A stretch of DNA of 37,959 bases from a virus (taxonomy: Duplodnaviria; Caudoviricetes), in the IMG/VR virus record IMGVR_UViG_3300032312_000921, positions 1-37,959 of that record, one strand, 5' to 3'. Position 1 is the stretch's first letter, and every line of letters starts with the position of its first letter. The notes beneath the pieces were generated by a model that saw only the letters and a program-made list of their open reading frames with translations, was not told the DNA's origin and searched no databases. A program made the position numbers and the translations under genes. Shown piece by piece: positions 6,182 through 18,950 of the stretch.

Positions 6182-7442
6182 CTGTTGACTCCTGTTCTTC
6201 TTCAGGTGTTTCAAGATCCCGTCGAACAATGGCAAAGCCGTTCTGCTTCACGATCTCTGGCCACTCACTGATGGGCCGAAGAACAAAGTCTGCGTAAGGA
6301 TCTCGTCGACCTGTCTTTCCCGAAACGCTCACTGGCCACGGAAACAATCCGGGGTCAGGCTTGAGTGCTCGCCAACGATTGACGGAGCGAAGGCGTGCAA
6401 GGTATTGACTGCGCCACATACTGTCAAGCAGTGCGTCGGCGCTTGTGAATGAAATGTTGACCGGCGGATTGAGCACACGCTCCGGCGAGAGATGGGCATA
6501 CTCGCCCTCTCCGTGGTACCACTCAAGGCAACGCTGGATGTAGTTCTCCAGACGGGGCTCACCTTGGTAGACCTTCTCGTTGCGGGGCATGCCCTTGCGT
6601 GGTCCACTCTTCAGGGGCGTGGTATCCAGGATGTAGTCCCGGTCCTTCATGCCGAACTCGATGGTCGGCTTCTGGATGATGACGTGCATCATGCCGCCCA
6701 CCCGCACATCGTCGGGCAGGTTGTACTGCTCACGGAACTTGGCGTTCTTCAGCTGGATCTCCAGCACATGCAGGTAGTGCTGGGTCTGCGGCTCGATGGA
6801 GCAGGAGGCTGCACGATCAGCAACTGGCAGGCTGGTGGTCTTGTAGTCCACAACCCACAGCGAGTTCTGCACCGTGTGGTACAGCAGCAAGTCGGGCTGC
6901 GCCACACAGGGTGTGGGGTTGTCAGTTGCACGCATCGGGTCCATGATGCTGGCACCCAGCAGGCACTCGGCGCAGATCACCCGATAGTGGGGGGACTGCA
7001 GGAACTGAGTGATGGTGCCGTACTCCTTGGAGATCTCGATGGTCGAGCATGCCTTGTACCACGCAAGGCTGGTCGCATGATCCTGCTCTTCGGTGGCAAG
7101 GATGGCACGACGCTTCTCGCCGTCGATGCCGTGTGTCTGACAGGTGGACATCAACTCATCAAGGCGCTTGCCAAGCAGGCTGGTGTACTGGGCGTCTGCT
7201 TCTGATTCGGGGAGGTGCATGAGTGCGAAGCGTTCGTGGAACCAAGTGCCACGGTTGAGTGCTTCGCTCCAGCGGAGGGATGGCACAAGACCCATGCGCC
7301 TGCAGAGCAGGTAGTGGAATGGGGAGTCAGTGCAGAGACGGAAGTCGGACGAGCGGACGGGAGGCTTGATGGCGACGAGGCCATGTGCTTCGAGGAATTC
7401 GACAGCATCCTCTCGTGAGAGAGACCGGAACTCAGGTGGCAT
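6174..7442 (-). CDS. PD-(D/E)xK nuclease (RecB-like phage exonuclease)
   Basis: RGTWFH, QPDLL...VVDYKT and QTQHY motifs; AGGAG RBS. Confidence 0.85.
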   Translation of the reverse strand: MPPEFRSLSREDAVEFLEAHGLVAIKPPVRSSDFRLCTDSPFHYLLCRRMGLVPSLRWSEALNRGTWFHERFALMHLPESEADAQYTSLLGKRLDELMSTCQTHGIDGEKRRAILATEEQDHATSLAWYKACSTIEISKEYGTITQFLQSPHYRVICAECLLGASIMDPMRATDNPTPCVAQPDLLLYHTVQNSLWVVDYKTTSLPVADRAASCSIEPQTQHYLHVLEIQLKNAKFREQYNLPDDVRVGGMMHVIIQKPTIEFGMKDRDYILDTTPLKSGPRKGMPRNEKVYQGEPRLENYIQRCLEWYHGEGEYAHLSPERVLNPPVNISFTSADALLDSMWRSQYLARLRSVNRWRALKPDPGLFPWPVSVSGKTGRRDPYADFVLRPISEWPEIVKQNGFAIVRRDLETPEEEQESTDG

Positions 7443-7462
7443 GTTGTTCTCCTGTTAGGTAG

Positions 7463-7750
7463 TTAAGCCCACACCCGCATGGGGTGGGATGGTGGTGGAT
7501 CAAGAATAGGTAGAGTATCAATCTGCTCTGGAGTCAGTTCCCCGACTACGCGAAGGTTCGCATGGAAGCGACTATCGGTTACGGCCTCGCCATCCACAAT
7601 GCGGGTCACAGGGCCGATCCAGCCGATGTCAATGCGCTGCCCGTCAAGTTCGTGGCACTCGCCATCAATGCGCTGGACTGTAACGCCGATGGCCGCGAAA
7701 GCCTCAACCATCCGCGCTTCCGTGTTCGTGCGTAGGTAGTAGTCGGTCAT
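7463..7750 (-). CDS. Small protein accompanying the spike/fibre gene (possible chaperone or cap)
   Basis: 95 aa; ATGA overlap with the fibre gene; DYYLR...FHANLR...P.RVWA pattern seen after phage spike genes. Confidence 0.75.
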   Translation of the reverse strand: MTDYYLRTNTEARMVEAFAAIGVTVQRIDGECHELDGQRIDIGWIGPVTRIVDGEAVTDSRFHANLRVVGELTPEQIDTLPILDPPPSHPMRVWA

Positions 7751-9588: not shown

Positions 9589-10097
9589 TAGATGTCGCCG
9601 AGGTGTGCGTTAGCGGTTGCTGATGTGGTAGTAGTGCGGAAGGCAAGTTCTACTAGGTCGAATCCAACCGTGTCCACAATGAAGAAGCCGGTGGTGCCAA
9701 GGCTGGTTGCGTTGAAGATCTTGCAGTCACCCGTTGCCTTGGTAAACGATGCACATCCCAGCATGCTTGCCGTGCCGTTGATTGTTGCACCGCTTGCAGT
9801 ATCAAGGGTGCAGGTCACATCGGTAATGAGGTTGGGGATCCACAATAGGGAGTCGCCACACCACACCCAACCAATCACTCGGATAGAAGGTGAGGTGCCC
9901 GCATTCGTAAAGCGAGGCGACACCTTCATGTAGTTCATTGAACCTGGGACAACAGCACTAGCACCAGAGCTCACTGGTTTGGTGGCAGTAGCGTACTTCA
10001 GGACGTAGGGGGAGACGGTGGTGGAGGTCGAGACGTTCGAACCCTTCAGCGCAAGGAAGTAGGGTCGGTCTGCGGTAACAAGTTGGACGTGTGACAT
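9588..10097 (-). CDS. Putative virion decoration / spike-base protein
   Basis: 169 aa, beta-strand and Thr-rich; TAATG overlap with the spike gene; GAGGA RBS. Confidence 0.6.
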   Translation of the reverse strand: MSHVQLVTADRPYFLALKGSNVSTSTTVSPYVLKYATATKPVSSGASAVVPGSMNYMKVSPRFTNAGTSPSIRVIGWVWCGDSLLWIPNLITDVTCTLDTASGATINGTASMLGCASFTKATGDCKIFNATSLGTTGFFIVDTVGFDLVELAFRTTTTSATANAHLGDI

Positions 10098-10642: not shown

Positions 10643-13015
10643 CTAGTCGATGTCGTACTCAAGCGGGACCACATTCCCATAGTGAGATTGCAGTTTTCCC
10701 CAGTACCCATCGGGGCTGGCTACCTGGGCCACGGCTTCCTTGACCATCGTGCGTAGCGTGTCGCTCTGTCCTGGGGGGACATCGAAGTAGATGGCATCGT
10801 AGACCTGGAGGAACATCAGGATGCGTGGGCCCTGCTTGTTCAGGGTAGGCAGCATGCGGCGCAGGCTGGCTTGGATCTGGAGCAGGGTGTTGCTGGCCTG
10901 GGTCTGGATGGGGAAGTTGACCACCTCATTGAGGTGGGCTGCTGGTCCCCCCACAAAGGTGCGTGACTGGCCGAAGATGGGGAGGAGAAGGTAGCCATCC
11001 GTGGCTACCCGGCTGATGAGGGATTGCTGCCAGCGGTGGAGGCCGGGTCGGGCTGCGGGCCGGGAGTTGGCGACCTGCTCGAAGAAGGGCAGGGGCATCA
11101 GCTCGCCGGTCATCTCATGGACAGACATGCGCATTCGCTGGGGTGAGGCAAGGAAGAGGTCAGCGAAGTTCATGGTCTTGCCCACTTGGCGTTCCCGCTT
11201 CTTGAAGGTGGGGCGGTTGACCGAGTCGAGGCCGAACAACTGGATGGCCCGGTCGGTGTGAAGGTCGAGGCCAGAGGTAAAGGCAGCCATCAGTGAGGGG
11301 TCACCTGAGCAGAGGGCTGCGACACGGAGTTCTACCTGAGAGAGATCCATCGAGATGATCTCACCGGATGGCCAGCGGGACTGGATGCAAGCCTTGATCT
11401 CAGGGGGAAAGGTCTGAGCGGAAGGGTGCTTGCATGTGATCCGGCCTTGAATGGTGCCGCCATCCCCGCCTGATGCGTCCTTCTGGGCGGAAGGCACGGG
11501 GTACCAGACGGGGTAGGCAGCACCGGTTGCTCGGCGGTTAGCCGAATGTGTTGTGGTCCACGTCGTCGTCGAGGTCAATGGAGTCAGTGGTCTTGGCTTG
11601 GACTGTGACCTTGCAGTCACTGATGCCTTCGAGGATGAGCTTGGTGTGGTGCTGGAGTCGCTCGACTTCTGCGTCGACGACTGTGCTGATGCACCTGCGG
11701 TAGACCTTGTCTTCTGGGTACTTGGCAACTCGACGGAGGAGGACGTTGCCCATTGCGTCGAAGACTGCTTTGTTGTTGACGAGGTAGGGCTTGTGCATGT
11801 CGACCATGTCCTTGATGAACTCAAGGAGGTTGAACCTGCAGGTGAGTTGCTCGTCGATGCTGAAGGGATTGGGGAACGTGAAGATGACGTCGACTTGTTC
11901 TGGTTTGATTGATTCGAATCCGGCCATGGGATGACAGTGTCTCCTTTGTTCTCAGGCTGATTGCGCCTGCCATGTAAGAGGGGGTAGATGTAAGAAGAGA
12001 GTTGCTTCTGGGTACGAGCCTGCACGCCAGCGAGCCAGAGGCCACGCGCCTCGGGCGAGCTGGCAGGGAGGTGAGCGAGGATCAGTTGGCGGTTGCCATC
12101 TGACCACGAGATCTGCTTGGTCTTCTCGGTGTACTGAAGAAGGGGGTGAGACAGAATGTCTATTTCCTGGTCGGCCAATTTGCTAATGGTGGTATCGAGG
12201 AACTCGGTCTTGCTCTTGGTCGAGCCGGTGCCCTGCAACTGCAGGCCGCTGGATTGGGCCAGCTTGGTGGACAGTTGGTCCTTCAGGACGAGACGCTGCT
12301 CCATGTCGTGGAGCATGCGGGTGTCCATCGGGATACCGGCCTCGGCCATGCTGATGATGGTCCACAGCAAGTCGGAGTAATGGGTGACTGAGGGCTGGTC
12401 GATCTTGCCAGAGTCTGGCCAGTCCTGGTAGATGCGACGCCGCAGTTCACGAGCAGCAAGCATGGTGTTGTGTGTGTCCTGTGCTGCGTAGCTGATGAAC
12501 TCCGGATCGTGGGGGGACCTGAACTTGCCGTCCTTTATGGTACGCTTGTAGGCATGAGTACCAAGGACAGGACCGAGAGACTTGAGCGATCGTTCTGGGC
12601 GCAGCTCGGAGTGCAGGTAGTTCAGGATGGAGAGGTCGTGAAGGGTGTGACGACCGGAGAGGGCGAAGCGAAGGGCGGGGCTGTAGTGACGGAGGAACTG
12701 CAGGTCGAAGGGCAGGTTCATACCAAGGATGTCGGTAGCCCAGTTGATCCACGAGGTGATGTGATACGCATGCTTGTGTGGGTACATAACCATGGTGCAG
12801 CAGGGTGAGAACGCAGGCTGACCACGACGCTTGCCGCATGGACATGAGGAAGCTTCGGTCGTGACTGCGACCGAGAGGACCAGGTCCTTGGGGGGACACT
12901 GATCTGTGTGCAGTGCACGCGCTGGATGGAAGACCGTCTGTGTGGGGAGGGGTCGGCCATCATGGGTGTGCGTGCAAGCGCCGTAGGTTTCGATGTCAAG
13001 CGAAATGAGTCGCAT
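10643..13015 (-). CDS. polA: Family A DNA polymerase with 3'-5' exonuclease and a ~130-aa Ser/Thr-rich insert
   Basis: ExoI LDIET, ExoII NLPFD, ExoIII YAAQD; GTIQGR; motif A DLSQVELRV; motif B RQVGKTMNF; NFPIQ; motif C QVYD. Confidence 0.92.
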   Translation of the reverse strand: MRLISLDIETYGACTHTHDGRPLPTQTVFHPARALHTDQCPPKDLVLSVAVTTEASSCPCGKRRGQPAFSPCCTMVMYPHKHAYHITSWINWATDILGMNLPFDLQFLRHYSPALRFALSGRHTLHDLSILNYLHSELRPERSLKSLGPVLGTHAYKRTIKDGKFRSPHDPEFISYAAQDTHNTMLAARELRRRIYQDWPDSGKIDQPSVTHYSDLLWTIISMAEAGIPMDTRMLHDMEQRLVLKDQLSTKLAQSSGLQLQGTGSTKSKTEFLDTTISKLADQEIDILSHPLLQYTEKTKQISWSDGNRQLILAHLPASSPEARGLWLAGVQARTQKQLSSYIYPLLHGRRNQPENKGDTVIPWPDSNQSNQNKSTSSSRSPIPSASTSNSPAGSTSLSSSRTWSTCTSPTSSTTKQSSTQWATSSSVELPSTQKTRSTAGASAQSSTQKSSDSSTTPSSSSKASVTARSQSKPRPLTPLTSTTTWTTTHSANRRATGAAYPVWYPVPSAQKDASGGDGGTIQGRITCKHPSAQTFPPEIKACIQSRWPSGEIISMDLSQVELRVAALCSGDPSLMAAFTSGLDLHTDRAIQLFGLDSVNRPTFKKRERQVGKTMNFADLFLASPQRMRMSVHEMTGELMPLPFFEQVANSRPAARPGLHRWQQSLISRVATDGYLLLPIFGQSRTFVGGPAAHLNEVVNFPIQTQASNTLLQIQASLRRMLPTLNKQGPRILMFLQVYDAIYFDVPPGQSDTLRTMVKEAVAQVASPDGYWGKLQSHYGNVVPLEYDID
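11538..11927 (-). CDS. Nested 129-aa hypothetical protein encoded in a shifted frame inside polA
   Basis: Own AAAGGAGACAC RBS; C-ending codon periodicity follows this frame; globular composition with an acidic C-terminal tail. Confidence 0.8.
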   Translation of the reverse strand: MAGFESIKPEQVDVIFTFPNPFSIDEQLTCRFNLLEFIKDMVDMHKPYLVNNKAVFDAMGNVLLRRVAKYPEDKVYRRCISTVVDAEVERLQHHTKLILEGISDCKVTVQAKTTDSIDLDDDVDHNTFG

Positions 13016-14167: not shown

Positions 14168-14443
14168 TCAGTCCATCTTGGGGTTCTTGCGGAACATGCT
14201 GTTGTTCAGGTTGCCCTCTTCCCATGGGGATGGTGGTTCACCACAGATGTCAGTGGTGATGCCGTTGCAGAGGGCGACGAGAAAAGCAAGCTTGATGATC
14301 TCGTCGTTGCCCCAGTACTTCTTGATGTCAGGTCCGTTCTCCAACTTGCACCACTCCTCGCGCCTGTCTTGGAGACACGAGAGTTGCGAATCCAGATGTG
14401 AGCCAATCATGTTGAGTGCAGCGCGGATGGTTGCGTTCTTCAT
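14168..14443 (-). CDS. Hypothetical protein
   Basis: 91 aa; ATGA overlap with the UDG gene; GGAG RBS. Confidence 0.7.
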   Translation of the reverse strand: MKNATIRAALNMIGSHLDSQLSCLQDRREEWCKLENGPDIKKYWGNDEIIKLAFLVALCNGITTDICGEPPSPWEEGNLNNSMFRKNPKMD

Positions 14444-15129
14444 TGGGATACTCCGGTAGGTAGGAAGGGGGTGACGAGGTTGGGGCTGGATGCTACGGGC
14501 ATCTGACCCACGAGGGCTGAGTGGATGAGGGTCATGTGGTCGGACACTGGGTGGAGGAGGTTGCCATCACGGAGGACAGCGGCAGGGTGGAAGGTGGTGA
14601 AGAGTTGCCAGTCCCCCCACAGGTTGGTGGGTGTGCCCTGCCGGGTGAAGGCAGAGGTGAGGGACCATGCCTTGGATGAGGTGAACTTGGTGACGGTCGA
14701 GAGGGCGTGTGCACCACAGGCTAGGAGGATGCGAGGTGTGGTGGGTGAGAGAGCGGAGGCTAGGGATGTGAGGTCGAGCGTTGAGTAGGTGGAGAAGCAG
14801 GTGCGGAACTGCTTGGGCTTGGGTGGTGTGGCCGAGTGGGTATAGCAGCGGGCCGTGTTGAGCAGGACGATGTGTGCGAGGGGGGTGATGTGCTTGAGGT
14901 ATACCTCCTTGAGGAGGCGACCAGATGGACCAACGAATGGTTGGTTGACCTTGTCTTCCTGTAACCCTGGGTTCATTCCGAGCACGGCGACGAGAGGTGT
15001 GGTGCTACTGAAGGGCAGGGATGCTGGAAGATGGACCGATGGTACCCCTGGGTTCCTGGCCTGTGCATGCAACTCGCATGCGGTGCACGAAGGTTGTGCT
15101 GGTTGGAGGATAGGAAGTGGGGTAGTCAT
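14440..15129 (-). CDS. Uracil-DNA glycosylase, family-4-like scaffold
   Basis: CTAC plus two further Cys (NTARC, FRTC); GMNPG..ED...PFVGPSGRLL; FHPAAVLR. Confidence 0.88.
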   Translation of the reverse strand: MTTPLPILQPAQPSCTACELHAQARNPGVPSVHLPASLPFSSTTPLVAVLGMNPGLQEDKVNQPFVGPSGRLLKEVYLKHITPLAHIVLLNTARCYTHSATPPKPKQFRTCFSTYSTLDLTSLASALSPTTPRILLACGAHALSTVTKFTSSKAWSLTSAFTRQGTPTNLWGDWQLFTTFHPAAVLRDGNLLHPVSDHMTLIHSALVGQMPVASSPNLVTPFLPTGVSQ

Positions 15130-18842: not shown

Positions 18843-18950
18843 GTGTGTCTCCTTTCAGGAGATGGAGGTAGTGAGATAGTGACACGAAGTGAAAATGGCC
18901 ATACCTAGCGTTAGCCAGGTATGGCCCAGGTCTCCCGGTCGGGAGGTCTA

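Follow-up and report, generated by a model that had tools for sequence, protein, structure and literature searches.

The ShiLan domain is an HNH endonuclease read out of frame and inserted in the DNA methylase genes of actinophages. In the parts of that report drawn on here, the passenger is a homing nuclease without a detectable RBS and its host is a dispensable methylase (PMC11855218). Overlapping alternate-frame insertion (OAFI) was engineered in tetA, where both genes were functional (bioRxiv 10.1101/2024.11.07.622342). In hepatitis B virus, the polymerase spacer overlaps preS in a single fixed arrangement between reverse transcriptase domains, and this has been described as modular overprinting (PMC9093120). 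Out-of-frame nucleases inside inteins have also been published (10.1101/2025.01.02.630785; 10.64898/2026.09.14.751524). Among family A DNA polymerases, phage polA genes in two parts with a small ORF between them have been published (PMC10580990; PMC12695635), and the inserts of human Pol theta (insert 2; PMC9962433) and of phages YerA41 and phiLo (bioRxiv 10.1101/2025.03.26.645540) have in common that such enzymes accommodate large insertions in their exonuclease domain, thumb and palm. Our comparisons draw on parts of these sources. A literature search of incomplete coverage, limited to main texts, gave no report of a gene other than a nuclease gene nested in a loop of phage polA.

We analyzed a virus record of 37,959 bases (hereafter the window), which is 73% complete and represents a fragment of a tailed phage with matches to terminase large subunit, primase and tail. 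The runs that contain it were mostly freshwater metagenomes. No close cultured phage was found, the best matches showing 23-28% identity. A single 2-kb fragment was present in a Gemmatimonadota MAG, which is too weak for host assignment. In the polA gene of the window, a complete 129-codon gene, hereafter the passenger, lies out of frame within the thumb-palm loop, and the polymerase frame is open throughout.

This locus shares with ShiLan, as the cited account presents it, an inserted ORF in a third frame, a stop-free host frame, the lack of intron or intein signals and a predicted retention of the loop (PMC11855218). Unlike in ShiLan as described there, many unrelated passengers without nuclease matches are found here, the host is a replicative polymerase, four loops are used and the gene is split at two of them. 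As in the OAFI design outlined in the preprint, the inner gene has its own RBS, the outer gene offers a flexible loop, the phase is the same and stops of the outer frame are removed (bioRxiv 10.1101/2024.11.07.622342); unlike that synthetic construct, the polA case would be a natural and repeatedly evolved version. The likeness to the hepatitis B spacer, on the portion of the review used, lies in a disordered, indel-tolerant polymerase linker from whose bases a second frame yields a protein under stronger constraint (PMC9093120). The polA case differs from it in the lineage-specific gain of different genes in family A polymerase loops. The published split polA genes correspond in layout to the state of six of our relatives (L091, L093, L099, L144, L148 and L134). 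Unlike those genes as far as they are described, the window has no stop or restart, and the halves are joined through the shadow frame of the passenger. Whereas the Pol theta, YerA41 and phiLo inserts are reported in the passages used here to be conserved and functional in the polymerase frame, the window insert is unconstrained there.

The family A DNA polymerase gene (polA; 10643..13015, minus strand) is one open frame of 790 codons in the ORF list, as given in the preliminary description. It encodes an exonuclease-like N-terminal domain, thumb, palm and fingers. The assignment was made with PF00476 (E 8e-24, above the curated cut-off), and the palm motifs were located. The top Foldseek matches of its AlphaFold2 model (mean pLDDT 82.5) were Pol I large fragments (prob 1.0). 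Alignment with Taq placed the insert between the end-of-thumb motif KQLSSYI (11987..12007, minus) and the strand before TGR, the first palm strand. Conserved polymerase sequence resumes with ATGAAYPVW (11504..11530, minus), upstream of which there is no in-frame restart carrying an SD. The loop is presumably the one that insert 2 of Pol theta occupies. Misassembly, a possibility raised in the preliminary description, was ruled out by independent single contigs from runs X2, X11, X19 and X20, which belong to four studies and do not include the possible source run; these contigs crossed both junctions. A joint skipping the insert was absent in all eight runs examined.

The passenger ORF (11538..11927, minus) lies in the -1 (= +2) frame of polA, wholly inside the polA ORF and on the same strand. 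It was called from its ATG-initiated frame, third-position variation and homologues. Read in the polymerase frame, the same bases (11531..11923, minus) encode an S/T/P-rich segment of about 130 residues that is predicted to be disordered and is missing from sister polymerases. S, T and P make up 61% of polymerase residues 365-493, and residues 368-491 had pLDDT below 50 in the AlphaFold2 model, with both halves folding at high confidence around them. The insert of about 130 residues next to KQLSSYI and the 129-aa ORF in another frame on the same strand, both reported initially, were thus borne out. Codon and residue counts also agree with what was first noticed about the composition of the ORF: 81 of 130 codons end in C, CTG does not occur, none of the five ATG/GTG codons is followed by A, and the last 25 residues hold six D/E against two K/R.

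An SD-like leader, AAGGAGACAC (11937..11947, minus), is located 13 nt before the nested ATG and also encodes the polymerase residues K-G-D-T, at which uninterrupted relatives read K-S-S. The same decamer leader was found at 18854 and 18141, before two early genes. The RBS of early-gene type proposed for the nested ORF is therefore present as a leader, but its AAGGAG stands 13 nt from the ATG versus 6 nt in the early genes, and no SD match precedes the nested ORF of the homologue L026. For the C-terminal half of the polymerase, the window offers just a TTG (-22 codons) and a CTG (-25 codons), each with a 3-nt SD match, which accords with the earlier statement that this half lacks a start or RBS. 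Near the insert, searches for a sigma-70 promoter-like site and, on the coding strand, for a terminator-like site were negative. One fold showed a hairpin covering the SD, which was discarded because local folding did not support it.

Purifying selection acts on the inner protein and not on the S/T-rich polymerase reading. This was seen when differences were pooled over eight runs and sorted into the core of the insert, the flanks and the acidic tail. In the core, 12 of 17 alleles fell at the third position of the inner frame, and in the flanks 12 of 13 fell at the third position of the polymerase frame (Fisher p 8e-4). Codon changes in the core were synonymous or replacing at 8:4 in the inner frame versus 1:10 in the polymerase frame (p 0.009) with a 3-nt indel hotspot excluded, and at 9:5 and 2:12 with the hotspot included. 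In two close pairs of assembled relatives the inner-frame pN/pS was 0.26; pairs below about 45% identity were saturated and were excluded. The acidic tail was under little constraint, with six synonymous and eight replacing variants in the inner frame, and the window differed from L024 by six replacing and no synonymous changes in this frame. Selection, which had been suggested for examination in both frames, was thus found in the core of the inner frame, but not in the tail or in the L024 pair. No variant introduced a stop in either frame in the eight runs, though with a sample of this size the absence is not significant. Likewise, none of the 15 inner synonymous changes seen created a polymerase stop, against 27 of 243 possible ones, a difference that is not significant.

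Given the inner protein, the polymerase frame of the window was open with P = 0.008-0.045 under codon-usage nulls, and single-gene values were 0.008 for the window, 0.028 for L026 and 0.003 for L001. A fully open shadow was present in none of 22 other minus-strand ORFs of the window and in 7 of 247 free-standing ORFs of 85-150 aa in the loci of relatives. When 125-codon sliding windows were used, which are pseudo-replicated, 6.6% overall and 17% among the closest relatives were open, and shadow ORFs of 279-396 codons exist in these C-rich genomes. The codon-usage P values overstate the rarity of open shadows, because such frames are common in these genomes. Openness in a single genome is modestly beyond chance and suggestive only, in agreement with the caveat given in the preliminary description, and the case rests on the homologues.

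Nested homologues of the passenger were found in L026 (37% identity) and L001 (20%), and the polymerase frame is open and in register in both. The register is kept because, after the inner stop, the window and L026 each have a 7-nt spacer and L001 has one of 1 nt. The L001 passenger was considered as an unrelated gene, which was rejected; it is a distant homologue. The ATG, the stop, the length (121-131 aa) and the hydrophobic pattern are kept at 20-37% identity. A profile search of 1.84 billion protein representatives yielded five proteins of the passenger family. Every known member appears to be nested, because all five are co-encodable with the S/T-rich insert of an independently found full-length polymerase (e.g. 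at 126/126 and 125/126 positions). No free-standing copies were found in viral contigs or in the flanks of relatives' loci by searches that were insensitive.

The HMM and structure searches proposed for the 129-aa protein gave no family or fold. No match was found in Pfam or PHROGs, including to HNH or other nucleases, and the family alignment contained no conserved HNH or zinc-finger Cys pattern. The best ESM Atlas score was 0.80, to unnamed clusters. The model of the passenger, of low confidence (pLDDT 58.9), consists of a beta-hairpin, three helices and a loose acidic tail; fold searches with this low-confidence model reached a best Z of 4.9, and Foldseek gave nothing under E 0.001. When the profile of the passenger was compared with that of the family nested at the exonuclease-thumb junction, no relationship emerged (probability 0.2%).

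The wider comparison used 85 distinct polymerase loci, drawn from 179 locus records by requiring a match of at least 1.1 kb and removing exact duplicates. A -1-frame ORF at or near an insert edge was found by hand curation at one of four loops in 30 of the 85 loci (37 instances), a share that is enriched and is no prevalence, since the queries were built from insert-bearing polymerases and near-identical strains were counted separately. The phase was always -1, and the polymerase was wholly open in 28 of the 30. Twenty-nine nested ORFs fell into 16 groups at E 0.01, several singletons among them being backed by start, position and openness alone. The alignment of related genes, a check proposed in the preliminary description, showed the insert to be absent from sister polymerases and different small genes to be present at polymerase loops. 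Inner-frame pN/pS was 0-0.19 for the close pairs L027-L029 and L034 with L039 and L042. In nine long inserts, the -1 shadow contained 55% S/T/P and zero stops, and the other shadow 21% Arg and 3.4% stops; this may explain why only the -1 phase was seen.

Some nested ORFs at other loops had features of their own. Those at the exonuclease loop (L027-L030, L033-L042, L046 and L049) run 25-50 codons past the insert into conserved polymerase, and this is a true overlap with the folded domain. At the thumb-tip loop, those in L045 (5879-6007), L054 (5858-5989), L049 (6059-6178) and L134 (2841-3035) encode putative short hydrophobic, membrane-helix-like peptides.

Split genes, with stops or frame changes between the polymerase parts and one to about six small genes in between, were present in 6 of the 85 loci. 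Five of them (L091, L093, L099, L144 and L148) are split at the same loop as the window insert, each with a stop followed by an ATG or GTG restart for the C-terminal half, placed exactly 11 codons before a conserved P-x-W in four and at 6 in one. The SD matches at these restarts were 4-6 nt in three and only 3 nt in two. No ATG, GTG or TTG was found within 14 codons of the resumption in the seven open loci checked at this loop, two further open loci there being missed by the search pattern. At a different loop, the open locus L031 has an ATG with AGGA at 7 nt that is plausible as a restart. Between the halves in L148 (530-2190), about 1.6 kb holds five or six small genes, with one leader repeated before two of them. 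Just past the restart in L099, an intein-like insert with an HNH-like region was noticed by eye (6790-7500).

Ten loci carry an extra 44-53 residues at the thumb-palm loop without a -1 ORF at the edge and were left out of the nested count; eight of these were shown to carry in-frame inserts of an ordinary kind, about 45 aa long. Such inserts, of 44-53 residues and ordinary composition, were seen in L084-L098, L140 and L168; several start with Met, and they are possibly passengers fused in frame. The split forms and the in-frame inserts show that the thumb-palm loop tolerates a cut or extra residues.

In a tree of the contiguous C-terminal domain (26 rows), the window and L001 grouped with uninterrupted polymerases (100/99), and the split genes formed a separate clade; a quick tree of 68 rows was also made. 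Joining the window clade to the split clade was rejected on the 26 rows (p-AU 0.0007). The statement that the polymerase frame is always open at this site therefore holds for the window's clade, but not for the five distant relatives that are split with a restart, and a simple split gene describes those relatives but not the window's clade. The passenger follows one polymerase clade and is not scattered, and its distribution in the family is patchy.

Other parts of the window were also inspected. A scan for nested genes in its other genes gave polA alone, the flank matches being shadow ORFs. In the exonuclease domain of polA, a Cys-flanked loop of about 15-20 residues (12797-12853, minus) is missing from L020 and L022 and occupies the site where other relatives carry nested ORFs; it is possibly the shrunken remnant of an earlier passenger. 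A uracil-DNA-glycosylase-like domain is fused to polA in two relatives, L020 (3156-5870) and P0105. In the window this domain (14440-15129) is separated from polA by six small ORFs, and the separation may mark a further site of insertion and splitting. At 10046-10097, the gene for an ERCC4-like nuclease extends 17 codons past the point where the following gene starts, in a -1 arrangement with an SD-like site inside.

We consider it probable that the nested gene exists together with read-through of the insert as a disordered linker, about 130 residues long and rich in Ser and Thr. The nested gene is real, selected and part of a recurrent, family-wide pattern. A complete 129-codon gene was likely inserted into the thumb-palm loop of polA, which would be a tolerated insertion site. 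The gene is likely translated from its own start, and polymerase ribosomes likely read the same bases straight through as a disordered linker, so that both proteins would be made; the loop would stay in the mature enzyme or be trimmed harmlessly. Read-through is likely because the split loci have a new start codon and the seven open copies checked do not. Owing to the C-ending codon bias, the -1 shadow of an ordinary gene would be low in stops and rich in S, T and P, and with such shadows enough insertions would be viable for them to recur.

The simplest history would be that the passenger entered an intact gene directly, because the window clade groups with uninterrupted polymerases, apart from the split clade. 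This origin is suggested by the tree alone, since no free-standing homologue of the passenger was found. The first of the two readings in the preliminary description, a polymerase tolerating a disordered loop that carries a second gene, is thereby supported, but its term "overprinted" is wrong for the origin; insertion is most likely, because the insert is absent from the sisters and the inner frame is constrained. Any benefit from tying the passenger to an essential gene would be conjectural.

The second of those readings is that the insert is skipped in expression, by RNA splicing or ribosomal bypassing, to leave a polymerase of about 660 residues. We regard it as very unlikely; no signal for an intron, an intein or a bypass was found. 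From ATG to stop the insert spans a whole number of codons and its exact removal would restore a short loop, as would hold for any gene; it also folds slightly better than shuffles (z -1.7), and RNAalifold proposes a helix of nine pairs linking both flanks. This helix, however, shows no compensatory change and sits in protein-constrained codons. No intron family was matched in Rfam down to E 5 (four matches, none an intron), and there were no shared junction repeats and no conserved structure or convincing consensus fold. Bypass of the T4 gene 60 type involves an in-frame stop and a hairpin right after the take-off site. Here, there is no in-frame stop, the 5' junction folds no better than shuffles, exactly matched take-off and landing codons are absent in the window and L026, and no pair is conserved across eight inserts. 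Skipping would also let the insert gain stops or frame changes without a restart, yet a restart is present in all six closed-frame loci.

That only the polymerase is made, the inner ORF being a decaying relic or no longer translated in this phage, has little probability in our judgment. The long SD spacing (13 nt), the missing SD in L026, a language-model recognition score of the passenger below the usual threshold and the weakly constrained acidic tail would fit such a relic. However, most of the recent changes that separate near-identical strains are synonymous in the inner frame, and start, stop, length and hydrophobic pattern persist among the distant homologues.

It is most unlikely that the gene is cryptically split, with the C-terminal half starting at a non-canonical or weak codon in or just past the passenger and the open frame being incidental. 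Five relatives are split at this very loop, L001 has GGAG just before the resumed sequence, and shadow frames are often open in these genomes. Nevertheless, ribosomes would continue beyond the N-terminal half in any case, as no stop codon ends it; the window lacks an in-frame ATG/GTG and an SD near the resumption point; the register is kept by the spacers in the window, L001 and L026; and the tree places the window clade with the uninterrupted polymerases and not with the split ones.

A selfish homing element of the ShiLan type or an intein is scarcely credible: the architecture and the patchy distribution resemble such an element, but neither the passenger, searched in Pfam and PHROGs, nor 17 other nested ORFs match HNH or other nucleases, the weak model of the passenger has no fold match, and the passenger follows one polymerase clade; and whereas an intein has a folded splicing domain in the host frame with Cys, Ser or Thr at its start and His-Asn at its end, the polymerase-frame reading here is of low complexity, predicted to be disordered, without a Pfam intein match and with termini that are not conserved.

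Returning to the nested gene with a read-through linker, we lean towards a broader interpretation, in which the replicative polymerase gene of this phage family is a general landing pad where accessory genes settle. Any small gene with a stop-free, S/T-rich -1 shadow could be lodged, with its own start, in one of four surface loops, and large deletions or frameshifts that take it out would put the polymerase at risk too. One natural process would then pass through insertion, long-term dual coding, shrinkage and splitting as its successive states.

The layout marks out four loops at which a family A polymerase takes 30-130 additional residues, and a "low-complexity insert" in a predicted phage enzyme can be the shadow of a gene that was not called. 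A route to split polymerase genes is suggested by the natural series of intact, in-frame insert, nested and split forms. Should both frames be expressed, the gene of an essential enzyme can take in whole folded genes without splicing machinery, many times in one phage family, by a nested-gene route distinct from overprinting through point mutation. If the polymerase gene does serve as a landing pad, it would be a natural parallel to engineered alternate-frame insertion that has evolved again and again, and would reveal a class of genes hidden by standard annotation.
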